The notes: a model not told the origin generated them from the letters alone. A DNA stretch of 64,000 nt from Candidatus Woesearchaeota archaeon (GCA_965205335.1 OZ242164.1:224001-288000), one strand, 5' to 3'; counted from the first letter of the stretch, positions 44,401 to 64,000 are shown. Numbers and translations are program-made.

Positions 44401-44438
44401 ATCAAAAATATGAAACGTCTAAAAAAACCCAATATCAT
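38490..44438 (-). CDS. giant secreted/surface protein (1982 aa) with Cys-rich N-terminal modules and Ig-like beta-sandwich repeats
   Basis: Signal peptide; Cys clusters; NLIKNPSFE (CBM-like start); recurring C.D..GN and D..PP motifs; many NxS/T sequons. Confidence 0.75.
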   Translation of the reverse strand: MILGFFRRFIFLMFLVMLFSLSFVYSSNHDQCCYNEKSMIVPCSEGGEEVGPYDDQTTSDLCYEYNRDDNRRVCEYVDSGGTEKCSKTVDGGKYIFVIGNRFFPEDVNLSEYCVTLPNYNSSCDDSQSTEGSSIGGGVDQGGINTRNTFDSNDDPDLNQSGNEPSSAQIDILKELCTPSENFIISIFATNSSCETGKQFCIYNPYLGGFFKDNYGSPDNMRDLGLAPAENSCIPKLLIDSCDDYKTKENCNNDRGYGEHRRDIKLNCEWVESSNFSEGYFSDISGICVVKEKLNPELIIRMNKKYYPDRLNLIKNPSFEYDMNSGDPFGWEYNNGNSLKEISDAYHGSYVYYLSEENSLSHTFYFPGNGKTYDPYLYARTESGPFNLTLNVTQFDNTGKEVESKRDKKELASYAFFQKIDFGDVPVGRNISRIEFKLESGGDIEIDSVSFEVLHSSSGNPNSYSEVFKPVQIYPKEASFCHLCYSANNLNLCTKSKSDLLGDCTYMVSNPSEPYNSSLSEYFGKYDNVHMRGDRPWQSQSVSNSELFCEMYLNETSCEDPNNYVNSHYSVYHNMTSKLCKWHNDYGCFKDSNNDDIPDVIKAKPSSYRGASLSDWEADYNWQSNDDNLSDFAFSCDTIPPNSYVYFTAKNLSGEDVTITKGDYGNMVGDVKIYLEYSDFIPPSCEPYLNVSSHNQIYLDVNISSITYSDQFTHNLKLNQRGSNSALLPVSEIFGQVPNAMYNISIRILDQSGNIGKSWDFSGLNMDLYGPNITLVEPSLTKHDTILMTSSSNDFKFNVTGDNGVENCSYSISKSDKSELNNNYVPNSSGYTIPDSDNQFYFNDTIINSTPEGSEVYDITISCIDIFGQKGEVSYTIIADFHTNFVLIEPLDFKTISEKFGYLNETKFFHGVSSDISPEGFNCSLEFDNLSTNATQRLNVSHIENSFTPSGLRGDFHKNITGKMGFNNDGRHEGYVKCIDQNDNEIIQNLTYYYDTVPPELVDFELVDVSTGSEKFVYYSQEDGRFYTRLRKNHGFNINLSLNGTVTWIDKSLNVTFGNESLQLAHSIIGYNESINFSDNSTIGWIYFSYVPSEYTPLPLSGEDNGLNLFNYTVEFRDKAGNVGSGGFKIYQDNSTPNLEIGGEVGKSLISDSNKVYTVKEQPNISVTLNYLSYRNFSCDVSLRQIRETDPIIYDTKNFSSVDSSMKFGVKDFHSGINLSTDGHFNLSLECVDIYNVSFSKSYVIVYDNVPPDLNGIELVGGPIKAFEHEIDNFPFGDLNDSVRFNLSNSENEEAYNCTLKIAPDSDGSNYYTCGESTNVILYSPNLNSSPLVLLIGRAENSAEDGICARKENFDSLLSASLDEDVMTNFIITAHCEDSAGLESSQQSYAFSVGYYSGGFIDSNVNYSSGIAHLSAYSVFPFSNVKVVTEEDIVDVANSDDEILVDNLPQQGLEGGVYTYGKDLDVSGYSDGIYDIRFDGYRYNAVSPSDGIRNELRIDTINPNVSISIPDGEGGEVFTSKFRINLNGSDSPPSGKLKVIKLYLDNALIYEENKEGFVFINDSLLIVSSRYSGGFYLGDMNYSNRDLVFKAGEFNQTYTFRVDLYDYVGNVGSDSITVTTNPMINYDMVSTPGQSYVLSPLHLITNLSAPIISFRISTEDLKCRVYPLIDQKWGRLVRNDTKYFDAVKDSNEADRYSIDLSSVPSFSFDNVLEDENGRSVKVKLSCQNEGIWVNQTIDLRWVDKFSIPDYVLESSNGFRINEYPYLSDITITSVGPFRPIRCMYSFDGSAPSTKFNESLNLQDFAINFKFMQSFNFSSFSDGDYTMKLLCNNAFGIDGPLKEYSFVVAKDEPLVINWAKLIGGSGEQILQEDGINYVADSSALLELSLNRKNVSCEYKLDDSKSFIDIIISFFRRIFFLGWEDLSSTQRYLITSQNNIVFESEHDLSIRCSYDNKDAVKKYEVRYVDNPNPLSINLSSVDGLS

Positions 44439-52290: not shown

Positions 52291-53265
52291 CTATCTCAAA
52301 CCCTTTCTCTTCATAACCTTCTTTACCGCCTTTATTATCTTCTCTGTTGAAATCCCATACTTATCCATTAATTCATATCCTCGTCCACTCTCTCCAAAAG
52401 AATCCTTCATACCAACAAACTCAACAGGCACAGGATAAACTCCTGAAAGATACTCACAAACCGCTCCTCCAAGTCCTCCTATTATCTGATGCTCTTCACA
52501 CGTTACAACTGCATTAGTCTTCTTCGCATACTTCAAAACAGTCTTCTCATCAAGCGGTTTAATTGTATGCATATTAACCAAAGTTGCCTTAATCCCTTCC
52601 TCTCTAAGTTCTGATACAGCCCTAAGAGCAAACTGAACAGTTAAACCGCACGCAATTATCATAACATCATCTCCCTCATCTAAAACATTGGCAACGCCTA
52701 TCTTAAACTTATCTGATTTCTTAGTGATATTCAAAGACTTCTCTCTAGAAATCCTAAGATAACAAGGACCCTTATACTTTGCAATTTCAATAGTTGCCTT
52801 TCTCGTCTCCTCTTCATCACAGGGAACTACAACAACCAAATTAGGTAGAACACGAGTAATTGCAATATCCTCTAAAACCTGATGAGTTGCTCCATCTTCT
52901 CCTGTCGTAAGCCCTGCATGGCCCCCCAAAACTTTAACGTTGCGGTTAGAATAACAAACTGAAACCCTGAGCTGATCCCAATTTCTCCCGGGATTAAATG
53001 CCGCAAAAGAAGTAACAAAAGGAATCTTCCCATTCAGACACATACCCGATGCAGCGCCCATCATATTCTGCTCGCAAACTCCCATCTGAAAATATCTCAG
53101 GGGAAACTTCTTTGCAAAAGCACTCACCCTAACAGAATCTGTTAAATCAGCACACAACGCAACAACATTCTTATTCTCCTTTCCTACATCCAAAAGTCCC
53201 TGCCCAAAACCATCCCTTGTAGAGCCCTTTGAATTACAATCAATATTATCATAATACACCATCAT
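52291..53265 (-). CDS. transketolase, C-terminal subunit
   Basis: ADLTDS, GVCEQNM, GEDGATHQ, EEHQIIGGLG. Confidence 0.95.
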   Translation of the reverse strand: MMVYYDNIDCNSKGSTRDGFGQGLLDVGKENKNVVALCADLTDSVRVSAFAKKFPLRYFQMGVCEQNMMGAASGMCLNGKIPFVTSFAAFNPGRNWDQLRVSVCYSNRNVKVLGGHAGLTTGEDGATHQVLEDIAITRVLPNLVVVVPCDEEETRKATIEIAKYKGPCYLRISREKSLNITKKSDKFKIGVANVLDEGDDVMIIACGLTVQFALRAVSELREEGIKATLVNMHTIKPLDEKTVLKYAKKTNAVVTCEEHQIIGGLGGAVCEYLSGVYPVPVEFVGMKDSFGESGRGYELMDKYGISTEKIIKAVKKVMKRKGLR

Positions 53266-54104
53266 AAATCACCTCTTTTAATTTTCTCTCTAATCCTAAG
53301 CAACTCATTAAGAGCAACCTTAGTTTCATCATCATTTGGAGCTTTCCCATGCCATCTATAATCACTCTCCATAAACGAAACTCCTTTTCCAGAAACCGTA
53401 TTTGCAATCAAACAAACAAGACTTCCCTTAATTTTCATACCTTCTCTTAAAGCATGCCTAATAGCCATTATATTATTCCCATCAAATTCAATCGTCTTAA
53501 ACCCAAAAGCAGAAATCTTTCTGGAAACATCACCAATAGAACTAATATCTCCTGTTCTCCCCTCAATCTGAACATGATTCCTATCAACTATCACAATTAA
53601 ATTATCAAGCCCCTCATAACTCGCAAACAAAAAAGCCTCCCAGCACTGACCCTCCTCAAGTTCACCATCTCCCATAAAACAAAACACTTTATTTTTCTTC
53701 TTATCCCTTTTCAAAGATGCCCCAAGCCCTACCGCCTGAGAAATCCCCTGCCCCAAAGGACCTCCTGAATTCTCAACTCCTACAACTGCCCCATTATGAG
53801 GATGTCCCTGCAATCTTGAATTAATCTTTCTAAATGTCATTAACTCATCAACACTAAAATATCCAAGCCTTGCAAGAACTGAATACAAAACAGGACAAAT
53901 ATGCCCATTAGACAAAAAAACAAAATCTCTTTTACTCCATTCAGGTTTCTTAGGATTATGATTTAAAACCTCATTATACAAAACAGAAAAAACATCCGCC
54001 ATTCCCAAAGAACCCCCGCAATGCCCCGACTTAGAATTATTAACCATCCTTACAATATCACACCTGACATCATTTGCAAATAACTTCAACTCACAATCAT
54101 CCAT
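53262..54104 (-). CDS. transketolase, N-terminal (TPP-binding) subunit
   Basis: SGHCGGSL, LSNGH, LQGHP, GDGELEEG, WHGKAP. Confidence 0.95.
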   Translation of the reverse strand: MDDCELKLFANDVRCDIVRMVNNSKSGHCGGSLGMADVFSVLYNEVLNHNPKKPEWSKRDFVFLSNGHICPVLYSVLARLGYFSVDELMTFRKINSRLQGHPHNGAVVGVENSGGPLGQGISQAVGLGASLKRDKKKNKVFCFMGDGELEEGQCWEAFLFASYEGLDNLIVIVDRNHVQIEGRTGDISSIGDVSRKISAFGFKTIEFDGNNIMAIRHALREGMKIKGSLVCLIANTVSGKGVSFMESDYRWHGKAPNDDETKVALNELLRIREKIKRGDL

Positions 54105-54240
54105 AAAAAAACTAAAAACCTAACAATTTAAATAAACGTGTTTTAATCTCAAAGTTTAACCACCCCAAACACTAAAAAAATTATCATGAAATAACCATAC
54201 AAATTTATAAACAAATCACTATCAATTTATATAATATACA

Positions 54241-55509
54241 ATGGAAAAATCAAACATGCAAAAACAAGATGACGAATTCATAGTATGCGAGAATTGTAAA
54301 AAACAATTAGGAAAAGTAAAACACATAGCACACCTTAGTTCAAAGGATTTATCTATTTTGGAAAATCCAAGAAGAGTAATGAATGTAAACTTCCCACTTA
54401 GAATGGACAATGGAACAATAAGAATAGTTAATGCATTTAGAGTTCAGTACAATGATGCTCTCGGTCCAACTAAAGGAGGTATAAGATTTCATCAAAGCGT
54501 TAATGAAGAAGAAGTTGCAGGGCTGGCGTTTTTAATGTCTCTTAAAACTGCATTAGTGGGACTGCCCTACGGAGGAGCAAAAGGGGGCATAAGAATTAAT
54601 CCAAAAGAATTATCCGAGGGGGAATTAGAGCGAGTATCAAGAGGATACATTAAAGAAATGGCTAAAATCATTGGACCTAAATTAGACATTCCCGCGCCCG
54701 ATGTTAACACAAATCCAAAAATAATGGGATGGATGATGGATGAATATGAACACATAGCAGGTGTTAAAACAAGAGGAGTTATTACTGGAAAACCAATTCT
54801 TCTTGGTGGAAGTTTAGGCAGAAATGAATCAACCGCAAGAGGAGCATTTTTTATAATATCCAGAAAATTTGAAAAAGAAAAAAACAAATCCAAAATTAAA
54901 ATTGCAATCTCAGGATTTGGAAATGCAGGCTCTAACCTTGCCAAAATGCTTGATAAAGAAGGATTTAAAGTTGTCGCAGTATCTGACTCATCAAGTGGCT
55001 TATATGAACCAAAAGGACTTGACATAGAAAAAATAATTGAACACAAAAAAGATAAGAAGCATCTTGCAACATATGAAAACTATAAGAAAATATCAAACGA
55101 AGAATTACTTGAATTAAACGTAGACATACTAATACCTGCCGCTCTTGGAGAGGTTATAAATTCAAATAATGTCCAAAATATTAAAGCGAAAACAATTGTT
55201 GAAGTTGCAAACGCTCCTACTTCAGTATCATCTGATGATGTACTAGAAAAGAAAGGAATAGAAATTATCCCTGACATTTTAGCAAATTCAGGAGGTGTTA
55301 TTGTCTCATACTTTGAATGGGTTCAGAATCTATCAAATTATTATTGGAGTGAAGACGAAGTAAACGAGAAACTAAAAACTAAAATTATTAATGCTTACGA
55401 AGATGTCTTGGAAGAAGCAAAAGTTCATAATATAAATTTAAGAACTGCATCATACACATTATCAATTGCAAGAATTCTTGAAGCAGAAACATTAAGAGGA
55501 CATATTTAA
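54241..55509 (+). CDS. gdhA: NAD(P)-dependent glutamate dehydrogenase
   Basis: GPTKGGIRFH, PYGGAKGG, DIPAPDVNT, GFGNAG, NSGGVIVSYFEWVQN. Confidence 0.96.
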   Translation: MEKSNMQKQDDEFIVCENCKKQLGKVKHIAHLSSKDLSILENPRRVMNVNFPLRMDNGTIRIVNAFRVQYNDALGPTKGGIRFHQSVNEEEVAGLAFLMSLKTALVGLPYGGAKGGIRINPKELSEGELERVSRGYIKEMAKIIGPKLDIPAPDVNTNPKIMGWMMDEYEHIAGVKTRGVITGKPILLGGSLGRNESTARGAFFIISRKFEKEKNKSKIKIAISGFGNAGSNLAKMLDKEGFKVVAVSDSSSGLYEPKGLDIEKIIEHKKDKKHLATYENYKKISNEELLELNVDILIPAALGEVINSNNVQNIKAKTIVEVANAPTSVSSDDVLEKKGIEIIPDILANSGGVIVSYFEWVQNLSNYYWSEDEVNEKLKTKIINAYEDVLEEAKVHNINLRTASYTLSIARILEAETLRGHI

Positions 55510-55511
55510 TT

Positions 55512-55949
55512 TTAATTTTCTCTTAAATAATCTCCTATGTTCATCTGATTTAATAATTTTTTATTTACAAATTTAATATATCCAATGGGATCTTCATTAT
55601 GCACAACAAGATAAAATTTCTTTTCATCAAGTCTTAAAGAACATCTAATATGGCTCAAAGACAAATCTTTTCCATACGTAAAATCAAGTGCTTTCTTTGA
55701 TGATTTAACACTAACTATATTTTTAGAATTTTTACTAATAAAATCAAACAAATACTTAGAAGGCAGTAACCTCTTTAATTTAATAAATATAAGACTATCA
55801 TTAAAAACCTCATCTTCCTCAAACTCTCTTTCACAAAGAAACACATTCTCATTTTTCACATATAACTTTTTGCCAAGAAAAAACTTAGAAATCTTTGAAT
55901 TGGAAACATCAAATCCTTTTAGAAAACTACGTAGTTCATCTGCTTTCAT
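55512..55949 (-). CDS. hypothetical protein, possible NIP7/PUA-like RNA-binding domain
   Basis: FTYGKDL...LVVHNEDPIGY...NIGDYLRE resembles the C-terminus of archaeal NIP7-like proteins. Confidence 0.5.
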   Translation of the reverse strand: MKADELRSFLKGFDVSNSKISKFFLGKKLYVKNENVFLCEREFEEDEVFNDSLIFIKLKRLLPSKYLFDFISKNSKNIVSVKSSKKALDFTYGKDLSLSHIRCSLRLDEKKFYLVVHNEDPIGYIKFVNKKLLNQMNIGDYLREN

Positions 55950-56117
55950 AAAATAAGCAATTAAAACAAATTTAAAAGTATATTGTTGTTTAAGTTAGTT
56001 AAATATACACAAAAATAACAAAATAGTGGGGGAAAAACATTTTGATGAAATAATCACTAACCAATAGAGGACATCACTTAAATTCTGTATCATTAATGAT
56101 ATAATAATAAAAGAAAT

Positions 56118-59100
56118 ATGATACAGAAAACTTCTATACAACAGAAAGTCTTAAAGACAACTTTAACATCATTACTAATCATTGCATTAATTGGACTAAC
56201 AAGTAGTTTAGCATGGGGAACTCAACCCCAATTCAATCAAAGTTTTTACAATTTTAGTTTTTATGAGGAAAATGATGGAACGGCAAACTATGCATATGTT
56301 GGAACAGTAAGTGCAAATGGTTCTGTTGGTGATACTCTAACATACTCTCTTGAAGGTCATAACCAATCTATGTTTAGAATTAATTCAGAAACAGGAGTTA
56401 TTACATACATTGGACCCGGGGAAGATTATGAAAGTGCAAATAAACTTGATCATACATTCAAAGCCAAAGTAACCAATGACAACAATGAGAATGAAGTATA
56501 TGTTTATGTATATGTTAAAGACCTAAACGACAACTATCCTATTTTCAGCCAGGATATTTTCTATCTTTATCTTGATGAAAACGCCAACGGAAGTTCAAAC
56601 CCTGTACCTATTGGAAATATAATCGCAACTGATCTTGATGAAGGGAGTTTAAAATACTCTATAACACAAGGAGACATTAATAAATTTGCTATTAACTCAA
56701 CAACAGGAGAAGTTACATACATTGGAAATGGAGAAGATTACGAAAGTGGAATATACCAATACAATTTAAAAGTTCAGGCAAGTGATGGAACATATCATCC
56801 CAAAAAAGATCTAATAGTTATCATTAATGACTTAGAAAACGAAAGCAGAAATTATCCCAACTGTAGTGGAACTGCAGCACTTAGAGGCTCTACAAGTAAA
56901 ACTGATTTAATTGCAGATTGTAATACTTTATTATCGTTTAAAAAACATATCAGAGCAGTGAATTTAAACTGGGATATCTACACCAGAATAGGAAAATGGG
57001 AAGGTGTTACAATAAAAAATAACAGAGTAACAAAATTATACTTGAGAAATAAAAATTTAACAGGGAGTATCCCCAAAGAATTAGGAAATCTCTCAGGATT
57101 GGTGTACTTAAATATGATATTTAACAATTTAACTGGGGAAATTCCTAAAGAACTGGGAAAGTTATCAAATTCATTTGAATTGGATTTGAGTTATAATAAT
57201 TTAAATGGAGAAATCCCCAAAGAATTAGGGAATATGGCAAGTTTGATTCAATTGTATCTAAACCACAATAATTTAACAGGAAGCATCCCTAAGGAGTTAG
57301 GGAATCTACATATATATGACTTGTATCTAGACCACAATAATTTAACTGGAGAAATCCCTAGAGAATTTGAGAATCTATCTCTAAGAAGTTTAAGATTGAG
57401 TAATAATAATTTAACAGGAAGCATCCCCTCGCAAATAGGAGACCAAAATTTGAAAGAATTATTTTTGAATAATAATAAATTAACCGGAAATATCCCCACA
57501 CAAATTGGAAGTTTAACAAATTTAGAGGACTTGTATTTAAATGATAATGAACTAACTGGGAGTATTCCATCACAGTTTGGAAGTTTAACAAAATTAGAGA
57601 ACTTATACTTAAACAATAACAAACTAACAAGAAATATCCCTACACAAATTGGAAGTTTAACTAAATTAGAGAATTTATATATGAACAATAACGAACTAAC
57701 TGGGAGCATACCTTCACAAATTGGAAGTTTAACAAATTTAGAAAATCTGTATATGAACAATAATAACTTAACTGGAAATATCCCTGAGGAATTAGGAAGT
57801 CTAATAAAATTAATTAATTTGGATTTGAGTTATAATAATTTAACAGGAAGCATACCCACGCAAATAGGAGACTTAACAAATTTAATTAATTTGTTTCTGA
57901 ATAATAATAACTTAACTGGAAATATCCCTGAGGAATTAGGAAGTCTAACAAAATTAATTAATTTGGATTTTAGTAATAATGATTTAACAGGAAGCATACC
58001 CACGCAAATAGGAGACTTAACAAATTTAATTAACTTGTTTCTGAATAATAATAACTTAAACGGAAGCATACCCACACAAATAGGGAATCTGATAGATTTA
58101 GTTAACTTAACTATAAACAACAATAATCTAACTGGGAGAATTCCTAGACAAATGGTAAGTTTATGGGATTTGGAAAAACTATTCTTGAACAATAACAATT
58201 TAAATGGAAGAATTCCATCGCAATTAGGAAATTTAAGGCGTTTAAAATACCTTCATTTGAACAATAACAATCTAAATGAAGGAATTCCTATAGGATTTGG
58301 ATACTTGGAAGATTTAGAGGAGTTCTTTTTGAATAACAATAACTTAACGGGAGATATTCCATATGAATTAGCAAGATTAGGTGAGTTATCACTCTTTTTT
58401 TTAAACAATAACAATCTAACAGGAGAAATTCCTGAAGAATTTGGAGATTTAGCAAACCTGAGAATCTTGCTTATGAATAATAATAATTTAAACGGAAGCA
58501 TTCCAAGAGAATTAGGAAATCTATCAAAATTAGAAGTACTGGATTTGAGTTACAATAATTTAAACGGAAGTATTCCTGAAGAATTAGAAAATTTACCTAA
58601 TTTGAGGAGTTTGAATCTAAGCAATAATAACTTAAGGAGTAACCCAGATAATATAGAAATTTTACCACCTCAACCTAATAATAATCCTGTTTTCAATCAA
58701 AATCATTACAATTTTAATCTTGATGAAAATGCAAATGGCAATCCAAACCCAATATCAATTGGAACTGTAAATGCAACAGATGAAGATGATGATAATTTAA
58801 CATACACTATTACACAAGGAAATACTAACAAATTTAACATTCATTCAGGAACAGGAAAAATTACATACACAGGAAATGGGGAAGATTACGATAGTGGAAC
58901 AACACAATACACCCTGACAATTCAGGCAGATGATGGACAAAATAACATAAATGCACAAGTTACAATTAGCATCAACAACTTAAACGACAACTCCCCACAA
59001 TTCTCCCGAAACTCATACACTTTCAGTCTTGATGAGAATGCAGACGGGAATCCAAACCCAGTAACAATTGGAACTGTGACCGCAACAGATGAAGACAGCA

Positions 59101-62100
59101 ATACTTTAACTTACACAATCACACAAGGAAATACTAACAAATTTGACATTAATTCTCAGACTGGGAAAATCACATACACTGGAAACGGGGAAAACTATGA
59201 AAGTGGGATAACACAACACACTCTGACAATCAGGGCAAATGATGGACAAAACAATGCAAATGCACAAGTTACAATTAACATCAACAACTTAAACGATAAC
59301 TCCCCTCAATTCGGACAAAGTTCTTACACATTTAACCTCAACGAGAACACAGACAGGAATCCAAACCCAGTAACAATTGGAACTGTGACCGCAACAGATG
59401 AGGACAGCAATACTTTAACATACACAATCATACAAGGAAATACCAATAAATTTGACATTAACTCTCAAACAGGAAAAATTACATACATCGGAACAGGAGA
59501 AGATTATGAAAGCGGGATAACACAACACACTCTGACAATCAGGGCAAATGATGGACAAAACAATGCAAATGCACAAGTTACAATTAACATCAACAACTTA
59601 AACGACAACTCTCCACAATTCGGACAAAGTTCTTACACATTTAACCTCAACGAGAACGCAGACGGGAATCCAAACCCAGTAACAATTGGAACAGTAACTG
59701 CAACAGATGAGGACAGCAATACTTTAACATACACAATAACATCAGGGAATATTAACAAATTTGACATTAACTCTCAAACAGGAAAAATTACATACATCGG
59801 AACAGGAGAAGATTATGAAAGCGGGACAACACAACACACTCTGACAATCAGGGCAAATGATGGACAAAACAATGCAAATGCACAAGTTACAATTAACATC
59901 AACAACTTAAACGATAACTTCCCCGCCTTCACTCAAAATTCATACAATTTTGATATTGATGAAAATGAAGATGGTAATCCAAATTCTGTTTCTCTTGGAA
60001 CAGTAAATGCAACAGATGAAGACAGCAATACTTTAACATACACAATAACATCAGGGAATATTAACAAATTTAGAATTAACTCAGAAACAAGTGAAATGTC
60101 ATACATCGGAACAGGAGAAGATTATGAGAGCGGGACAACACAATACACCCTGACAGTTCAGGCAAATGATGGACAAAACAACGCAAACGCCCAAGTTACA
60201 ATTAACATCAACAACCTAAACGACAACTCTCCTCAATTCAGTCAAAGCTTTTACACATTTAGTCTCAATGAAAATGCTGACGGAAACTCAAACCCAGTAA
60301 CCATTGGAACAGTAACTGCCACTGATGAAGATGTTGGCGACACTTTAAGATATTCCATCACATCTGGTAATGCAGATAACAAGTATGACATTAATTCAAC
60401 AACAGGTGAAATCACATATATTGGAAGTGGAGAAGATGGAAGCACACCAATGTATTCCTTAAATGTTAGCGTAACTGATACTGAATTTTCTGACCAGACC
60501 ACTGTTCAGATTATCATTAATGCAACAAGCAATAATAACAATCATCCTCAATTCCCTACCGACGTAGCCTATTTTGACCTTGATGAGAATTTGAATGGTC
60601 CTATATATGTTCATGAGCTCACTGCAACTGATGATGATGTTAATGATACTATAACCTACTCAATTGCTTCTTGTGATAGAAGTAAGTTTAGTATTAATTC
60701 CTCAACCGGTAGAGCACATTACATTGGTAGCGGGGAAGATTTTGAGAGCTTAGTGGAGTCTGGTTCAACCCAGTTTAATTGTATAATTGAAGCCAGTGAT
60801 GGGTCACTTAATGATACTATTAGGTTAGAGATTAACGTTGTTGATGTGAATGAGGCTCCTGAATTTCCGGGTAGTGGTTATGCTTCTAATGATCTTGATG
60901 AGAATATAGATGGGAGTTCAAGTAATAAGTTCCTTCACTTTACCTTTGCAACTGATCCTGATGACGATAATTTAACATACTCTATTACAGAAGGTGATAC
61001 AAGTAAATTTAGAGTTGATGAATCAAATGGTAACTTATATTACATTGGCAGTGGAGAGGATTATGAGGATTTAATAGATCTTGGAGATAACTCTTATAGT
61101 GTTACAATTACAGTTAGTGATGGAGAACATAATGATTCTTATATTTTTACTTTAGAGATTCTTGATGTGAACGATGCTCCTATGTTCACCGGGTTTGAGA
61201 CACGCGGACCTATGAAGGCTTATTTTTTCAATTTTGATGAGAATCTGAATGGCAGTTCTACTCCAGTTTTTGTAGGGAATGTAACCGCGACTGATGACGA
61301 TGAGGATAATTTAACATATAGTTTTACTACTGCTCAAACCAAGTTTGAGATTAATTCATCAACTGGTGAGATAACGTATATTGGTAGCGGGGAAAATCAA
61401 GAAGATGAAGATAGTTTTAGGAAAGCGGTGCAGGTAAGTGATGGTAATCTTAATGTTTCTGTCAATGTTTTAATTAGTGTTAATGATGTAAACGAGGCTC
61501 CTGAATTTAATCAGGATTCATACAATTTCATTCTTAACGAAAATACAAATGGCAGTTCAACGCCTTTTCCTATTGGAACGGTAACTGCGACTGATCCTGA
61601 GGAGGATACTTTAACATACTCAATCTTACCAGGAGAAATAGACAAATTTCAAATTAATTCAACAACTGGTGAAATCACATATATTGGAAGTGGAGAAGAT
61701 GGAAGCACTTCAGTATATTCCTTAAACGTTAGCGTAACTGATACTGAATTTTCTGCCCAGACCACTGTTCAGATTACCATTAATGCAACAGTCAATACTA
61801 ACAATCCACCTGTATTCACTGAGCTCTCTCATCTCTCTCTTGCAGAAAACCGAGACGGGAGAACAACTGCTGTTTATGTTGGAAATGCAACTGCAACCGA
61901 CCAGGATAATGACACTTTAACATATTCCATTACTGAAGGCGACACAAATAAATTTAATATTGATTCATCAGTCGGGGAAATTACATACATTGGAAGCGGG
62001 GAAAATTACGAAAGCGGAAATACTCAACATAATTTAACAGTTCAGGCAAGTGATAGAACAAATGATATAACTGCTAAGGTTATAATTAATATAAAAAATA

Positions 62101-63320
62101 TAAATGAATCTATTGCTTTCAATCAGAGTTTCTATACTTTTTATCTTAATGAGAATGCAGATGGAAGTACAAATCCTATAACTATTGGCAAAGTGAACGC
62201 TATTAGTGGAAGTGGAATACCTGCATACTCTTTTCTTGATAATACATACAGCAGGAAATTTAATAACATAACTAACGATGGTGATATTAATTATATAGGA
62301 AATGGTGAAGATTATAATAATGAAGAAAATCAATTTAATTTAACAGTTGGGGCAAGGATTGATGGAAACTCTACTTCTGTTAATATTACCGTTAATATTG
62401 TTAATTCTAATGATACAGAGATTATACCTCTCCAATATAATGTAAAGACAGATGAAAAAGAGACTAACTCTAATGAAACAGGGAATTTACTTCCATCCCC
62501 TAATGTAAACACAGATGAAAACGAAAGTATCTCACCACCATCATCTACATCCGACAAACCAAAAAGTGGAAGTGGGAGCGGAGACAGTGGAAGAAGTAAA
62601 AAGAGTAAGCCTACACCAGAAGAAGAAGAAGAAGAAGAATATGAATATGAATTTAAAACAACAAGTTCAAGTGCAGATACAATTAAAATAACTTCAAATA
62701 AAATTGCAAAAAATATAAAAGTAAGTGCTAACAGAATCAGAAACACATCATCTACAATACAAAATATTCCAACTCCACAGGGAAAAGTATATGAATATAT
62801 TGAAATAACCACAAGCGGATTAGAAGATGATGAAATTGTTGGTGCAACAATTGAATTCTCTGTAAGTATAGAATGGTTGTCAGAAAATGGATTTGAAAAA
62901 GAAGATGTAGTGCTATTAAGATATAATGAAGACAAAAATGAATGGGAAGAATTTAACACTATTATAATCAGTGAAAATTCAACAGAAGTTAGGTACTCAG
63001 CAGATACATCTATGTTTTCAATTTTTTCTATAACAGCAAAAAATGAAGAAACTCCAACCACAACATCAATCCCTCAGACAGATTCTTCTATTGAGAAAGA
63101 GAATAAACTAAAACCACTAGCACACGAAGAAGAAACACATCAACAAGAAACAAACACAGTTCCTAACGACATAGAAACAAACATTCCACAAACACCAGCA
63201 CAAACGCAACCAATACAAGAAGAAAGTTCATCAACTACATTAATCTTCATCATACTTGGAATCATAATAATAATCACAGGAATAATAATATACATATCAA
63301 CCAGAAAAACTGAAGAATAG
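56118..63320 (+). CDS. 2400-aa surface protein: signal peptide, 2 cadherin repeats, capped ~23 plant-type LRRs, 12 cadherin repeats, PGF-pre-PGF-like domain, C-terminal TM
   Basis: LxxLxLxxNNLTGxIPxxLGxL repeats; cadherin motifs LDEN, ATDxD, DYE, NxNDNxP; GKVYEYIEI...ATIEFSV..EWL..NG...LLRY...W...TSMFSIFSI; TM followed by RK. Confidence 0.93.
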   Translation: MIQKTSIQQKVLKTTLTSLLIIALIGLTSSLAWGTQPQFNQSFYNFSFYEENDGTANYAYVGTVSANGSVGDTLTYSLEGHNQSMFRINSETGVITYIGPGEDYESANKLDHTFKAKVTNDNNENEVYVYVYVKDLNDNYPIFSQDIFYLYLDENANGSSNPVPIGNIIATDLDEGSLKYSITQGDINKFAINSTTGEVTYIGNGEDYESGIYQYNLKVQASDGTYHPKKDLIVIINDLENESRNYPNCSGTAALRGSTSKTDLIADCNTLLSFKKHIRAVNLNWDIYTRIGKWEGVTIKNNRVTKLYLRNKNLTGSIPKELGNLSGLVYLNMIFNNLTGEIPKELGKLSNSFELDLSYNNLNGEIPKELGNMASLIQLYLNHNNLTGSIPKELGNLHIYDLYLDHNNLTGEIPREFENLSLRSLRLSNNNLTGSIPSQIGDQNLKELFLNNNKLTGNIPTQIGSLTNLEDLYLNDNELTGSIPSQFGSLTKLENLYLNNNKLTRNIPTQIGSLTKLENLYMNNNELTGSIPSQIGSLTNLENLYMNNNNLTGNIPEELGSLIKLINLDLSYNNLTGSIPTQIGDLTNLINLFLNNNNLTGNIPEELGSLTKLINLDFSNNDLTGSIPTQIGDLTNLINLFLNNNNLNGSIPTQIGNLIDLVNLTINNNNLTGRIPRQMVSLWDLEKLFLNNNNLNGRIPSQLGNLRRLKYLHLNNNNLNEGIPIGFGYLEDLEEFFLNNNNLTGDIPYELARLGELSLFFLNNNNLTGEIPEEFGDLANLRILLMNNNNLNGSIPRELGNLSKLEVLDLSYNNLNGSIPEELENLPNLRSLNLSNNNLRSNPDNIEILPPQPNNNPVFNQNHYNFNLDENANGNPNPISIGTVNATDEDDDNLTYTITQGNTNKFNIHSGTGKITYTGNGEDYDSGTTQYTLTIQADDGQNNINAQVTISINNLNDNSPQFSRNSYTFSLDENADGNPNPVTIGTVTATDEDSNTLTYTITQGNTNKFDINSQTGKITYTGNGENYESGITQHTLTIRANDGQNNANAQVTININNLNDNSPQFGQSSYTFNLNENTDRNPNPVTIGTVTATDEDSNTLTYTIIQGNTNKFDINSQTGKITYIGTGEDYESGITQHTLTIRANDGQNNANAQVTININNLNDNSPQFGQSSYTFNLNENADGNPNPVTIGTVTATDEDSNTLTYTITSGNINKFDINSQTGKITYIGTGEDYESGTTQHTLTIRANDGQNNANAQVTININNLNDNFPAFTQNSYNFDIDENEDGNPNSVSLGTVNATDEDSNTLTYTITSGNINKFRINSETSEMSYIGTGEDYESGTTQYTLTVQANDGQNNANAQVTININNLNDNSPQFSQSFYTFSLNENADGNSNPVTIGTVTATDEDVGDTLRYSITSGNADNKYDINSTTGEITYIGSGEDGSTPMYSLNVSVTDTEFSDQTTVQIIINATSNNNNHPQFPTDVAYFDLDENLNGPIYVHELTATDDDVNDTITYSIASCDRSKFSINSSTGRAHYIGSGEDFESLVESGSTQFNCIIEASDGSLNDTIRLEINVVDVNEAPEFPGSGYASNDLDENIDGSSSNKFLHFTFATDPDDDNLTYSITEGDTSKFRVDESNGNLYYIGSGEDYEDLIDLGDNSYSVTITVSDGEHNDSYIFTLEILDVNDAPMFTGFETRGPMKAYFFNFDENLNGSSTPVFVGNVTATDDDEDNLTYSFTTAQTKFEINSSTGEITYIGSGENQEDEDSFRKAVQVSDGNLNVSVNVLISVNDVNEAPEFNQDSYNFILNENTNGSSTPFPIGTVTATDPEEDTLTYSILPGEIDKFQINSTTGEITYIGSGEDGSTSVYSLNVSVTDTEFSAQTTVQITINATVNTNNPPVFTELSHLSLAENRDGRTTAVYVGNATATDQDNDTLTYSITEGDTNKFNIDSSVGEITYIGSGENYESGNTQHNLTVQASDRTNDITAKVIINIKNINESIAFNQSFYTFYLNENADGSTNPITIGKVNAISGSGIPAYSFLDNTYSRKFNNITNDGDINYIGNGEDYNNEENQFNLTVGARIDGNSTSVNITVNIVNSNDTEIIPLQYNVKTDEKETNSNETGNLLPSPNVNTDENESISPPSSTSDKPKSGSGSGDSGRSKKSKPTPEEEEEEEYEYEFKTTSSSADTIKITSNKIAKNIKVSANRIRNTSSTIQNIPTPQGKVYEYIEITTSGLEDDEIVGATIEFSVSIEWLSENGFEKEDVVLLRYNEDKNEWEEFNTIIISENSTEVRYSADTSMFSIFSITAKNEETPTTTSIPQTDSSIEKENKLKPLAHEEETHQQETNTVPNDIETNIPQTPAQTQPIQEESSSTTLIFIILGIIIIITGIIIYISTRKTEE
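57759..58058 (+). repeat. near-identical 144-bp tandem duplication (two LRR units)
   Basis: aataataacttaactggaaatatccctgaggaattaggaagtcta starts at both 57759 and 57903. Confidence 0.85.
58680..60390 (+). repeat. 309-bp tandem cadherin-coding repeats
   Basis: atcaacaac(t/c)taaacga recurs at 58971, 59280, 59589, 59898 and 60207. Confidence 0.9.
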
Positions 63321-63505
63321 AAAAAATAAATTTAAAAGTATATGGTTACCAAAACTAGTTGAATATGTATAAATAATAACAAAATTTCTTTTTTTATGAT
63401 AAAATTTCTAAACAATAAATTTGTTATTAAAAAGAAGAAAATCTTATCATAATTACTAACTAGTGAGTAAAATATATTATAATATGATTTTATCTCCTCA
63501 TAAAT

Positions 63506-64000
63506 GTGAGAGAAGAAAAAGTATTAAAACAGAAAATTCTGAAAACGGTTTGGATACTTTTAATGTTCATTGTATTAATCTGCTTATCTGCAAACTCTGT
63601 ATTAGGGGAATGTGACGGCACTATAGCAGTTGGAAGTTCTACAAATGATACAGATTTAATCGCAGACTGTAAAACTCTGTTATCAATTAAAAAGCATTTT
63701 AATGCAAGTTTAGATTGGAGTGTTGACAAAAATATTAGTAATTGGGAAGGTGTTACGGTAAAAGATAACAGAGTAACTAAATTGGTATTGTTCCAAGCTA
63801 GTTTAGTTGGAGAAATTCCAAAAGAATTAGGCAATCTATCAAATCTGACTGAACTTGACTTGAGTAATGATAAATTCTTTGGAACAAAATCTAACAAGCA
63901 TAATAGCGAAAATAAAAATAGATTAAGTGGAAAGATACCAGCAGAATTAGGAAATTTAAAAAATCTGCAAAGACTCTTTCTTGGTAGTAATAATTTAACA
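63506..64000 (+). CDS. second LRR surface protein (paralog of 56118-63320), cut by the window end; not in the ORF track
   Basis: GTG start; (M)REEKVLKQKILKTVWILLMF...ECDGT...TDLIADCKTLLSIKKH...NWEGVTVKDNRVTKL...GEIPKELGNL; open to 64000. Confidence 0.9.
   Translation, partial: MREEKVLKQKILKTVWILLMFIVLICLSANSVLGECDGTIAVGSSTNDTDLIADCKTLLSIKKHFNASLDWSVDKNISNWEGVTVKDNRVTKLVLFQASLVGEIPKELGNLSNLTELDLSNDKFFGTKSNKHNSENKNRLSGKIPAELGNLKNLQRLFLGSNNLT

Follow-up and report, generated by a model that had tools for sequence, protein, structure and literature searches.

Capped leucine-rich repeats of the plant-specific class on an archaeal membrane anchor: a pair of putative adhesins from a Candidatus Woesearchaeota archaeon

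What would an archaeon with a small genome do with proteins that join leucine-rich repeats (LRRs) of the type found in plant receptors to an archaeal surface domain, in one case by way of a long cadherin stalk? The question is raised by one end of the window analyzed here, a stretch of 64,000 nucleotides from Candidatus Woesearchaeota archaeon (GCA_965205335.1 OZ242164.1:224001-288000), which holds one such gene (gene A) and the beginning of a second (gene B). An earlier note on this DNA proposed a tandem, expanded family of chimeric adhesins or receptors with which the archaeon might recognize a host or a eukaryotic niche. In our reading, to which we give a probability of about 0.65, the two products are type-I, C-terminally membrane-anchored adhesins with an LRR head from a bacterial-type module, and their most likely job is cell attachment.

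Gene A (56118–63320, plus strand) is a single open reading frame (ORF) of 2400 amino acids, delimited by ORF calling, translation, and Pfam and NCBIfam matches, in which a signal peptide, two cadherin repeats, an LRR cap, 23 LRRs, 12 further cadherin repeats, a PGF-pre-PGF domain, and a transmembrane (TM) helix follow one another; all are on the plus strand. The signal peptide (approximately residues 1–34; 56118–56219), whose cleavage site is predicted from the translation, has a basic N-region, a hydrophobic core, and the ending ...SLAWG, and this N-terminus resembles those of gene B and of the giant cadherin proteins of the genome. Cadherin repeats 1 and 2 (residues 38–243; 56229–56846) form the tip of the molecule and are followed by the N-terminal LRR cap, recognized in the translation with its cysteine pair C249/C268 (residues 249–303; 56862–57026), by the LRRs (residues 304–852; 57027–58673), and by a stalk of cadherin repeats 3–14 (residues 858–2101; 58689–62420). 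The PGF-pre-PGF domain (residues 2171–2307; 62628–63038) precedes a hydrophobic run taken as the TM helix (approximately residues 2375–2393; 63240–63296) and the tail STRKTEE. By the ORF calls, a 185-bp spacer (63321–63505) separates gene A from gene B, which starts with GTG at 63506 on the plus strand, continues past the window end at 64000, and was taken at full length from the genome (287506–289851; 781 amino acids). Gene B comprises a signal peptide, a cap (C36/C55), 17 LRRs, a C-cap (C503/C521), a PGF-pre-PGF domain (approximately residues 540–690), a spacer, and a TM helix (residues 758–774); no cadherin was found in it by phmmer from one repeat or by a hidden Markov model (HMM) built from the matches. 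It is thus the homolog described earlier as lying 185 bp downstream, with a signal peptide and cap and no N-terminal cadherins.

The earlier count of about 23 LRRs of a 24-residue class in gene A holds: a regular expression yields 21 starts, and the in-register layout has 23 units, 20 of 24 residues and three of 23. Four Pfam LRR families match (LRR_1, 5.2e-49; LRR_14, 6.1e-39; LRR_4, 1.7e-38; LRR_8, 1.1e-36), and the DNA of the array shows tandem periods of 72 and 144 bp with 71–78% matches. The 31 regular units of genes A and B have the consensus LxxLxLNNNNLTGxIPxELGNLxx and belong to the plant-specific class, for which the source cited gives a 24-residue repeat with the variable segment [ST]GxIPxxLxxLxx (PMC4030839). 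The gene A cap reads ...C.GT.A..GS...DLIADC.TLL.FKKH...W...WEGVT...RVTKL, and the cysteine pairs of cap and C-cap are conserved. Pfam LRRNT_2 (PF08263) scores 15.5 bits on the gene B cap, below its cut-off of 20.7, and does not match the gene A cap, so that of the plant-type N-cap claimed earlier the cap itself remains, and its sequence is only LRRNT_2-like.

A sequence search of solved structures returned plant LRR receptor-kinase or receptor-like ectodomains for all of the 40 best matches (GSO1, 2.4e-158; FLS2, 1.8e-137). The AF2 model of the solenoid, in gene B numbering, has a pLDDT of 92–99 over residues 45–510; Foldseek again ranks plant LRR ectodomains highest (ERL1, 6.8e-34), and the predicted solenoid superposes on RGFR1 with an rmsd of 2.0 Å over 460 columns (38% identity) and on BRI1 with 1.7 Å over 480 columns. 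The affinity to plant receptors that had been noted therefore extends to class and fold, but the nearest proteins by identity are bacterial ones from metagenomes. All 71 related loci in GTDB species genomes are bacterial (30–60% identity; 34 Dehalococcoidia, nine Latescibacterota, five Rhodothermales, two each from Acidobacteriota, Acidimicrobiales, and Omnitrophota, and 17 others), and 11 of them, from Dehalococcoidia and Acidimicrobiales, have the two-Cys cap type. This cap type also recurs in many metagenome proteins, with 36–49% identity, versus 28–34% for plant caps. In the cap tree, which carries a composition warning, the archaeal clade, the plant caps, and a single cap from Acidimicrobiales meet in a trichotomy (support 91/81), and the archaeal clade is not nested within a bacterial group; an AU test did not reject archaeal and two-Cys bacterial caps together (p = 0.39), this grouping having been named after the tree was seen.

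The archaeal relatives give a different picture. The LRR query matched none of 19 congeners; plant-specific LRRs were not found elsewhere in the phylum, where the four matches among 400 other genomes are all "NxLTxLP" LRRs of other classes without a signal peptide; and the ortholog query gave two weak partial matches among 400 other genomes of the order. These counts may be too low, since the samples are representatives, many of them incomplete, and long repeats often go unassembled in metagenome-assembled genomes (MAGs). Among 71 other anchor-bearing proteins, two (P0015 and P0125) contain LRRs, both on one contig of 1.04 Mb; with this ortholog pair, the LRR module is not unique to this genome. 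The earlier note had allowed that the architecture might prove common in archaea; in the relatives searched it was not found. Patchy distribution and best matches together suggest that the module was acquired horizontally. In both GC and GC3 the LRR segments fall within one standard deviation of the long ORFs of the genome, and since composition is fully native, any transfer would be old, or its donor AT-rich.

The remaining parts of the two proteins appear to be home-grown. Both cadherin searches, phmmer from one repeat and the HMM from its matches, find 14 repeats in gene A, the approximate number given before, and Pfam Cadherin matches at 6.1e-89 with 11 stretches above threshold. Calcium-site motifs are frequent (xEN in 12 of 14 repeats, A.D.[DE] in 12 of 14, and a DxNDNxPxF-like linker in six of 14). 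Repeats 1 and 2 are 41% identical to the N-termini of cadherin ORFs of 3198 and 1952 amino acids, and the stalk DNA contains a 309-bp tandem array of 5.3 copies with 85% matches. The genome encodes 97 cadherin repeats in six ORFs and is the only one among 41 relatives with cadherin above the Pfam cut-off (congeners, 0/19). Surface proteins of giant size and many domains are commonplace in the order: FN3 occurs in 20 and TIGR04213 in 19 of the 41 genomes, with TIGR04213 in one of 19 congeners.

The PGF-pre-PGF-like domain and TM segment described at the end of gene A are both present: TIGR04213 (PGF_pre_PGF) scores 89.6 bits against a cut-off of 28 over residues 2171–2307, and the hydrophobic run follows. 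TIGR04213 exceeds its cut-off in genes A and B and five further ORFs, and the seven together make up about 4.4% of the genome. The nearest anchors to that of gene A are in the cadherin giants (genome 355–403 kb; E values of 1e-36 to 1e-40 against the 3198-, 1952-, and 5178-residue ORFs), and the nearest to that of gene B are in ORFs at 296–310 kb (E about 1e-50 against the 1653- and 2439-residue ORFs). Between genes A and B the anchors share 31% identity and the LRR parts 50% (residues 36–487 of gene B, cap and LRRs). Because their anchors come from different paralog lineages, the two genes are mosaics and not plain tandem duplicates, and the earlier description as tandem paralogs is too simple, whereas the chimeric architecture is confirmed by agreeing domain matches and repeat counts. 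As for an expanded family, it is the anchors and cadherins that are expanded: a six-frame scan of the 1.2-Mb genome finds the plant-type LRR motif in only two ORFs, so the LRR genes are a pair.

The PGF-CTERM signal (TIGR04126) and archaeosortase A (TIGR04125) were not found in the genome by a search that matched both in Haloferax volcanii and Methanosarcina acetivorans; a plain TM helix is therefore the probable anchor, and the C-terminal segment is also modeled as a helix. By analogy with the modeled homolog in gene B, the gene A domain is probably a beta-sandwich. The gene B model matches ZU5/FIIND folds with Z of 8.8 to 5.3 and GAIN_B domains with Z of 7.6 (BAI3), 7.5 (CD97), and 6.6 (CELSR1), scores that below about 8 can mean a mere common arrangement, and its Foldseek E value is weak (0.06). 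In gene A a conserved T-S-M-F-S turn (S2301) stands ahead of the last strand. In an alignment of 73 anchors this turn has S in 70 and a preceding [FL] in 71, followed by x-F-A-I; position −2 holds G in 54 sequences and S in 12, with M and N in genes A and B, respectively, and no invariant His occurs elsewhere in the domain. The anchor is thus predicted to adopt a ZU5/GAIN-like fold in which an [FL]-S turn is conserved, a lead that may point towards force-releasable tethers.

These parts can be assembled into a tentative picture of attachment. A Sec-type signal peptide would export both proteins. The ligand-binding head would be the capped, plant-specific-class LRR solenoid, which could be heavily N-glycosylated (N-x-S/T sequons: 61 in gene A, 24 in gene B). 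The head of gene B would sit near the membrane; that of gene A would lie within a calcium-stiffened, presumably rigid cadherin rod, with 12 repeats below it and two beyond. A cadherin repeat is roughly 4.5 nm long, so that 12 of them would place this head about 50 nm out. Towards the C-terminus both proteins have the predicted PGF-pre-PGF beta-sandwich and a disordered spacer rich in acidic residues, Pro, and Thr, then a single TM helix with a tail of some 5–7 residues. One LRR-plus-cap module, of a kind that environmental bacteria have in abundance, would thus have been joined to anchor and stalk cassettes of two lineages native to the genome, and the proteins would attach the archaeon to a host or partner cell or to a surface in its habitat. 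Cell attachment is not the sole possibility, since LRRs can also have glycans, lipids, or small ligands as binding partners.

The best-surviving alternative, which we consider unlikely, is that the LRR and cadherin modules contact an animal host such as a sponge, its cells or matrix, and not a prokaryotic one. LRR, cadherin, and FN3 are among the domain classes that the passages cited report as enriched in sponge symbionts (PMC11706023, PMC7848895), and the closest named LRR relatives come from MAGs of Dehalococcoidia, Latescibacterota, Rhodothermales, Acidobacteriota, and Acidimicrobiales. Three of these loci (L076, L077, and L079) bear "SB0661_bin" names, by which they would belong to a series that the cited text ties to the sponge Ircinia ramosa (PMC11706023). 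The restriction of above-cut-off cadherin to this genome among the relatives fits as well. Against it, the genome has no ankyrin repeats, and the bacterial relatives were drawn from many MAG sets. The hosts to which DPANN cells attach, moreover, are generally taken to be prokaryotes. That the host is a small-genome DPANN cell, as had been supposed, is supported by its genome, a single contig of 1.2 Mb, 95% complete, with an archaeal 23S rRNA, and by the grouping of its FtsY with Woesearchaeota or Nanoarchaeota (all 10 organism-named matches among the 120 listed).

A structural coat or spacer layer, or homophilic cadherin-like contact between sister cells, with no specific foreign ligand, seems to us improbable. 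PGF-pre-PGF typifies archaeal surface and S-layer-type proteins, as the matches in the H. volcanii and M. acetivorans controls illustrate, and the share of the genome given to anchor ORFs and the many sequons would suit such a layer. But a coat should be conserved, and the congeners have almost none of these domains; capped LRR solenoids are typical ligand-binding heads; and recent repeat expansions, such as the 85% DNA matches of the stalk, are less expected of a lattice protein than of adhesins that diversify. Signaling in the manner of plant LRR receptor kinases or receptor-like proteins is very improbable: the proteins share their LRR class and fold with plant receptors for peptides and steroids, and a co-receptor is conceivable, though nothing points to one, but the Pfam scan finds no kinase and both proteins end about 5–7 residues beyond the TM helix. 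With no kinase or other cytoplasmic domain, they would bind without receptor-kinase-like signaling, and "receptor" in the plant sense does not apply. Least likely of all is a misjoin of bacterial or eukaryotic DNA to an archaeal contig, which the rarity of the module in relatives and its bacterial best matches might suggest, but which is contradicted by native composition, by an anchor and signal peptide common to other ORFs of the genome, by archaeal core genes on both sides (glutamate dehydrogenase, a split transketolase, and Met-aminopeptidase upstream; CDC48 and tRNA-intron endonuclease downstream), and by Logan contigs that cross the junctions. These contigs, assembled independently from three runs of one sample, possibly the source sample, match 53000–57788, linking transketolase, glutamate dehydrogenase, and a PUA gene to LRR unit 11, and 61987–64000, linking the end of gene A to gene B, with no differences.

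Set beside known systems, the proposed adhesins share with the plant ectodomains (GSO1, FLS2, RGFR1, BRI1, ERL1) a twisted solenoid of 24-residue plant-specific LRRs, a helical N-terminal cap closing on W.GV...RV..L.L, and a single-pass membrane anchor. They differ in lacking island domains and the plant C.W.GV.C cap cysteines, in place of which a Cys pair 19 residues apart lies further upstream, and in being fused to an archaeal anchor and cadherins; the LRR module is 28–40% identical to plant proteins versus 40–56% to prokaryotic relatives. Bacterial multidomain LRR surface proteins (e.g., P0074, P0018, and P0009) have the same repeat consensus (...NxLTGxIPxELGNL...), cap type, and C-cap (NxLTGC.P...C), and P0074 in addition joins its LRRs to two cadherins, FN3, and a C-terminal TM helix. 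Bacterial LRR proteins carry T9SS, PPC, FN3, or protease modules in place of PGF-pre-PGF and a TM helix, whereas in gene A the array is set inside a cadherin rod, and the host is an archaeon in whose sampled lineage this LRR type was otherwise not found. Archaeal PGF-pre-PGF/PGF-CTERM glycoproteins share TIGR04213, and the parts for archaeosortase A processing were not found here. The eukaryotic-like proteins of sponge and animal symbionts, as far as the cited texts describe them, are large secreted or surface proteins with the same LRR, cadherin, and FN3 classes, whose domains are thought to spread by horizontal transfer (PMC11706023, PMC7848895); the archaeal examples given there are ammonia-oxidizing Thaumarchaeota with "leucine-rich repeat DUF285," not the plant-specific class (PMC7848895). 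Finally, MAIN domains are described as microbial GAIN-like autoproteolytic domains (Brogan & Rudner, bioRxiv 10.64898/2026.05.12.724683), in a main text that contains the term PGF-pre-PGF 0 times. The His of their defining HX(S/T) motif is absent from the archaeal anchors, which keep the hydrophobic-Ser turn, and MAIN proteins are anchored by sortase or SLH and not by a TM helix. By the same text, the adhesion domains of MAIN proteins include cadherin-like, LRR, Ig-like, and FN3 domains, and their N-to-C order is that of genes A and B: signal peptide, adhesion domains, a beta-sandwich next to the anchor, and a surface anchor.

Two adjacent genes encode exported-looking, membrane-anchored proteins with a capped leucine-rich-repeat (LRR) solenoid. 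Gene A (window 56118–63320, forward strand), an ORF of 2,400 amino acids, has a signal-peptide-like N-terminus, two cadherin repeats (residues 38–243), an array of 23 LRRs when written in register (residues 304–852; 20 units of 24 residues and three of 23), twelve further cadherin repeats (residues 858–2101), a PGF-pre-PGF domain (TIGR04213; residues 2171–2307, window 62628–63038), and a hydrophobic C-terminal helix followed by STRKTEE. The Pfam family Cadherin (PF00028) scored 293 bits against a cut-off of 28.8 (E = 6.1e-89, 11 passing stretches), LRR_1 and LRR_8 matched at 5.2e-49 and 1.1e-36, and TIGR04213 scored 89.6 bits with hmmscan and 96.6 bits in a search of the genome, against a cut-off of 28. 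A single-repeat search and an HMM made from its matches each gave the same 14 cadherin units. The layout and counts that the earlier note had read from the DNA (about 23 LRRs, 14 cadherins, PGF-pre-PGF domain, and transmembrane, or TM, helix) are thus upheld by the in-register array, the HMMs, and TIGR04213. The calcium-site motifs xEN and A.D.[DE] are each present in 12 of the 14 cadherins, and a DxNDNxPxF-like linker in six; the rod that carries the gene A solenoid has thus retained most of the calcium-site motifs of cadherins, and its repeats may bind calcium. Tandem repetition is also visible in the DNA, as 5.3 copies of 309 bp with 85% matches in the cadherins and as units of 72/144 bp with 71–78% matches in the LRRs, suggesting that internal expansion is still ongoing in both arrays.

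Gene B starts with GTG at window 63506, 185 bp past the gene A stop, and extends beyond the window end; as read from the genome, it encodes 781 amino acids in the order signal peptide, cap, 17 LRRs, two-cysteine C-terminal cap, anchor domain, acidic/proline-rich spacer, and TM helix. Fifteen of its LRRs have 24 residues, one has 40 with an insert, and the last merges into the C-terminal cap; its PGF-pre-PGF domain lies at genome 289174–289542 (53 bits in the genome search, cut-off 28). The predicted signal peptide and cap are present, and gene B lacks not just the two N-terminal cadherins, as had been noted, but cadherins altogether.

The 31 regular units of the two genes give the consensus LxxLxLNNNNLTGxIPxELGNLxx. 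As published, the definition of the plant-specific LRR class comprises 23–25 residues with LxxLxLxxNxL followed by [ST]-[GS]-x-[IL]-P-x-x-L-x-x-L-x-x (PMC4030839), and the LRRs of genes A and B agree with it in length and in both conserved and variable segments. An AlphaFold2 model of gene B, built from a 34-sequence alignment, has pLDDT values of 92–99 across residues 45–510 and of 30–60 in the anchor of the full-length model. The best 50 Foldseek matches listed for this model are plant LRR ectodomains throughout, including ERL1 (6.8e-34), RGFR1 (rmsd 2.0 Å over 460 columns, 38% identity), and BRI1 (1.7 Å over 480 columns); when solved structures were searched by sequence, each of the best 40 matches was the ectodomain of a plant LRR receptor kinase or receptor-like protein, with GSO1 (2.4e-158) at the top. 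The LRR part of gene B is predicted to have the plant LRR ectodomain fold. A protein-atlas search with gene B gave no usable match.

The claim of a plant-type N-terminal cap survives in part. An LRRNT-like W.GV...RV cap is present in both proteins; however, PF08263 (LRRNT_2) reached only 15.5 bits in the gene B cap against a cut-off of 20.7 (E = 0.022) and did not match the gene A cap, and the plant C.W.GV.C cysteine pair is missing from both, the cap cysteines being C36/C55 (gene B) and C249/C268 (gene A). The cap probably works like an LRRNT cap, yet is of a different subtype. The notion of a receptor in the plant sense had to be dropped: Pfam identified no protein kinase family, and since the chain stops about 5–7 residues past that helix, neither protein can signal as receptor kinases do. 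The Xanthomonas type III LRR effectors XopAE (163.6/600), XopAC (135.7/450), and XopL (66.7/500) scored below their NCBIfam equivalog cut-offs, and the similarity to them is no more than that of generic LRRs.

The two genes are mosaics. Their cap-plus-LRR regions are 50% identical and their anchors 31%. Seven ORFs carry the anchor domain: besides genes A and B, these are ORFs of 1,653, 2,439, 5,178, 1,952, and 3,198 amino acids (stop to stop). All seven are on the forward strand within genome 280–404 kb, and together they amount to about 4.4% of the genome. Nearest to the anchor of gene A are those of the 3,198-, 1,952-, and 5,178-residue cadherin giants (E 1e-36 to 1e-40), and nearest to that of gene B are those of the 1,653- and 2,439-residue ORFs (E about 1e-50); because the anchors match different paralogs, one LRR module has been joined to two stalk/anchor lineages. 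The signal peptide and first two cadherins of gene A share 41% identity with the N-termini of the 3,198- and 1,952-residue giants, and the LRR module of gene A is an insert within a cadherin protein. Cadherin repeats total 97 in six ORFs genome-wide (14, 9, 26, 13, 24, and 11); when the full genome was scanned for the LRR motif in six frames, genes A and B were the sole ORFs to carry it. The chimeric build proposed for the family is therefore supported; the description as simple tandem paralogs does not hold, the anchors coming from different lineages, and the expanded LRR family shrinks to two ORFs.

Anchor and cadherin ORFs, some with FN3 domains, make up a one-strand "surface island" at genome 280–404 kb and 1160612–1166455, all of it beyond the window apart from genes A and B. 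A 1,640-residue protein there (genome 296596–301518) has the same anchor and no recognizable Pfam head domain, its sole Pfam match being a sub-threshold one to a trimeric-autotransporter Trp-ring. The 2,439-residue cadherin/FN3 ORF is preceded, at a distance of about 170 bp, by a 46-residue frame (genome 303246–303344) that matches the signal peptide of gene A at 66% identity; the true start of the ORF may be farther upstream, or the gene may be interrupted. Between two surface-protein genes is a RhuM-family gene (genome 301979–302974, reverse strand; Pfam E = 1.3e-101); genes of this family often travel with mobile elements. Elsewhere, a 1,982-residue ORF on the reverse strand (window 38490–44438) has no NCBIfam match at E ≤ 1e-5.

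The genome that carries the pair is a single contig of 1,199,749 bp, rated 95% complete, of which the window is bases 224001–288000. It contains an archaeal 23S (LSU) rRNA (2357.9 bits), and among the best 120 FtsY homologs listed, the 10 that are organism-named are all from Woesearchaeota, Nanoarchaeota, Nanoarchaeales, or Nanoarchaeia. Assignment of the host to the small-genome DPANN archaea (Woesearchaeota/Nanoarchaeota type) is thereby supported. The pair is flanked by ordinary archaeal housekeeping genes: a split transketolase, glutamate dehydrogenase (GDH), Met-aminopeptidase, FtsY, Trm1, and MutL upstream, and CDC48 and tRNA-intron endonuclease downstream. The transketolase consists of two adjoining genes for the N-terminal and C-terminal halves (window 52291–54104, reverse strand), an arrangement common among archaea. 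GC and GC3 of the LRR segments (0.29/0.26 in gene A, 0.31/0.20 in gene B) are within one standard deviation of those of the 426 long ORFs of the genome (0.32 ± 0.04 and 0.25 ± 0.06).

A chimeric join to non-archaeal DNA had been raised as an objection. The stretch is present in three sequencing runs from one sample, perhaps that behind the genome, whose Logan contigs were assembled independently; no RNA run containing it was among those listed. One of these contigs matches window 53000–57788 with zero differences, running from transketolase through GDH to the eleventh LRR, and another matches 61987–64000 with zero differences, linking the anchor of gene A to gene B. Because these contigs cross the junctions, the objection is removed, as a matter of assembly rather than of biology. 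The cadherin array between them (about 58.0–62.0 kb) is represented by short loose-ended Logan pieces, none of which crosses the whole stretch, since repeats break short-read contigs.

Relatives of the LRR proteins are scarce among the archaeal genomes searched. With the cap-plus-LRR region of gene B as query, we found matches in none of 19 genomes of the same genus, one of 21 from other families of the order, and four of 400 others sampled from the phylum at a completeness of 90% or more. The four phylum matches were rejected, being short proteins with no signal peptide whose LRRs are of the common "NxLTxLP" kind and outside the plant-specific class. The module does occur in one further archaeal genome: a contig of 1,044,134 bp encodes both P0015 (710 amino acids), which is orthologous to gene B over its full length and 50% identical to it, and P0125 (467 amino acids), with a cap, about five LRRs, a C-terminal cap, and an anchor. 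As query, P0015 gave two weak partial matches (34–35% identity, one in an unpublished genome) in 400 sampled other genomes of the order. TIGR04213 occurs in 17 of the 21 genomes from other families of the order and in one of the 19 in the genus; Cadherin passes its Pfam cut-off in none of the 40 relatives searched, and FN3 is common (20 of 41 genomes), these relatives being representative genomes, many of them fragmented, in which absence means not found in those searched. Long repeats assemble badly and are lost in short-read metagenome-assembled genomes (MAGs). The possibility that the architecture is common in archaea finds no support among these relatives, in which it was not found. Among 71 other proteins sharing the anchor, P0015 and P0125 alone have LRRs, the remainder having Ig-like, CARDB, NosD/beta-helix, NHL, or PKD heads. 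Ankyrin repeats were searched for in this genome and none were found; a congener in 260 contigs has ankyrin matches on three of them with one or two in-frame TAG codons, which could reflect contamination, pseudogenes, or another genetic code.

Elsewhere, relatives of the LRR module are abundant. A word-indexed search gave at least 7,991 (7,991 of 8,000 candidates scored), and the best 120 mix plant receptor kinases with metagenome proteins that carry FN3, PPC, Ig, T9SS, trypsin-like, or cadherin domains. In GTDB species genomes, a set from which the genome of the window and very close ones may be missing, each of the 71 related loci is bacterial and 30–60% identical (34 Dehalococcoidia, nine Latescibacterota, five Rhodothermales, two each of Acidobacteriota, Acidimicrobiales, and Omnitrophota, and 17 others). 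The cap is the sole non-repetitive marker, and genes A and B share one subtype of it: a Cys, about 18 residues, D-C-x-x-L-L-x-x-[KR], then W...W.GV...RV..L. Many metagenome proteins have this two-Cys subtype (36–47% identity), as do 11 of the 71 loci, all in MAGs of Dehalococcoidia or Acidimicrobiales (identity up to 49%), whereas plant caps are 28–34% identical to those of genes A and B and have cysteines at other places.

In a maximum-likelihood tree built on 109 columns of the cap and first repeats from 64 rows, the four archaeal caps form one clade (support 90/56; 96/80 and 99/90 within it), which meets plant caps and a single Acidimicrobiales cap in a trichotomy (91/81); a composition warning applies to the archaeal rows and two plant rows. 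The separate phylogeny thus groups the archaeal caps without fixing their source: neither this 64-row tree nor the AU test singled out a donor, and holding the archaeal caps with the two-Cys bacterial caps, a group named after the tree was seen, was not rejected (p = 0.39). Our reading is that one acquisition, or one ancestral gene, was followed by duplication and shuffling, and that a bacterial donor would be likelier than a plant. The bacterial metagenome protein P0074 is already an LRR-plus-cadherin surface protein.

We infer that genes A and B bind something outside the cell, and because the host is a DPANN-type archaeon, a partner cell is the obvious candidate. Alternatively, the proteins may make contact with a eukaryotic host, the role that published work proposes for sponge-symbiont proteins rich in LRRs, cadherins, and FN3 domains (PMC11706023, PMC7848895). 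This reading gains some color from the bacterial taxa in which the closest relatives of the LRR module occur, and the names of three of the related-locus MAGs belong to a series tied to the sponge Ircinia ramosa (PMC11706023); the lack of ankyrins in this genome counts against it. A purely structural coat is less likely, since none of the three modules (LRR, cadherin, anchor) is conserved in the genus.

To our knowledge, little is known of how DPANN archaea recognize and hold partner cells, and for partner recognition or attachment genes A and B are concrete, testable candidates: a binding head of a well-understood structural class, in one species and not found in sampled congeners, its LRR module, probably of foreign origin, having been shuffled onto stalk/anchor cassettes native to the lineage. 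Each part by itself is of a known kind; what is new is the host lineage, the insertion of a plant-specific LRR array into a cadherin rod that is held by a PGF-pre-PGF anchor, and the mosaic history. The plant-specific LRR class, and its pairing with cadherins, is extended to a small-genome archaeon. Literature searches, thin on subscription journals, turned up passing mentions of PGF-pre-PGF and no publication that deals with LRR or cadherin proteins in DPANN archaea or Woesearchaeota.

The anchor itself invites comparison with better-characterized domains. PGF-CTERM (TIGR04126) and archaeosortase A (TIGR04125) were not found in this 95%-complete genome, the Haloferax volcanii and Methanosarcina acetivorans controls having matched; since neither was found, the TM helix is probably the anchor. 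PF09721 also had no match in the genome, in a search whose control missed Haloferax. With the anchor region alone (residues 530–781 of P0003), a word-indexed search scored nothing in 3,615 candidates, and an exhaustive HMMER search gave 149 relatives at E ≤ 1e-3, 11 of them at E ≤ 1e-10; by sequence, the domain matched no solved structure at E ≤ 10. Modeled from a 73-sequence alignment, it is a beta-sandwich (pLDDT 88–98) followed by a disordered spacer and the TM helix. Foldseek gave nothing significant (best, the BAI3 GAIN domain, E = 0.06). A wide VIA-align search, which works independently of Foldseek, placed ankyrin ZU5 domains first (Z 8.8, 8.3, and 8.0), then GAIN domains (BAI3 7.6, CD97 7.5, CELSR1 6.6, Gpr126 6.5, GPR97 6.4, GPR110 6.2) and FIIND domains (CARD8 6.0, NLRP1 5.8; lowest GAIN/FIIND rows 5.3), with dextranase and CBM sandwiches interspersed (6.5–5.2), and Z values in this range may reflect a common arrangement alone. 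Across the alignment, the sequence of the turn that precedes the last strand is [TS]-P-G-[FL]-S-x-F-A-I, with Ser in 70 of 73 rows and the preceding F/L and following Phe in 71 each; it is T-S-M-F-S in gene A (S2301) and T-S-N-L-S in gene B (S673).

GAIN-like autoproteolytic (MAIN) domains, reported in bacteria and archaea, self-cleave at H-x-[ST] in the turn before the last strand, lie between adhesion domains (cadherin-like, LRR, Ig-like, FN3) and a surface anchor, and have been proposed to serve shear-driven ectodomain release (10.64898/2026.05.12.724683); the main text of that preprint does not mention PGF-pre-PGF. In our alignment the position of the catalytic His (−2) is G in 54 and S in 12 of the 73 sequences and, in the rows printed, never His. 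Because the His is missing, we have not filed PGF-pre-PGF as a MAIN member and keep it as a lead; judging from the model, it may be a His-less relative. That it is the archaeal counterpart of the GAIN/MAIN/ZU5 autoproteolytic domains, with a His-less site at G-[FL]/S-x-F-A-I that would make the heads force-releasable tethers, is doubtful, with a probability of roughly one in five. If so, the LRR and cadherin heads would grip the host cell and could be shed under load, leaving a membrane stub; species-specific capture of a bacterial plant-type LRR module would change what episymbionts hold; and the same would apply to archaeal surface proteins generally, in six-figure numbers. Genes A and B have the adhesin–sandwich–anchor architecture of MAIN proteins without the His, and the fold and motif of their anchor may link the poorly characterized PGF-pre-PGF domain to these recently described microbial GAIN-like domains.
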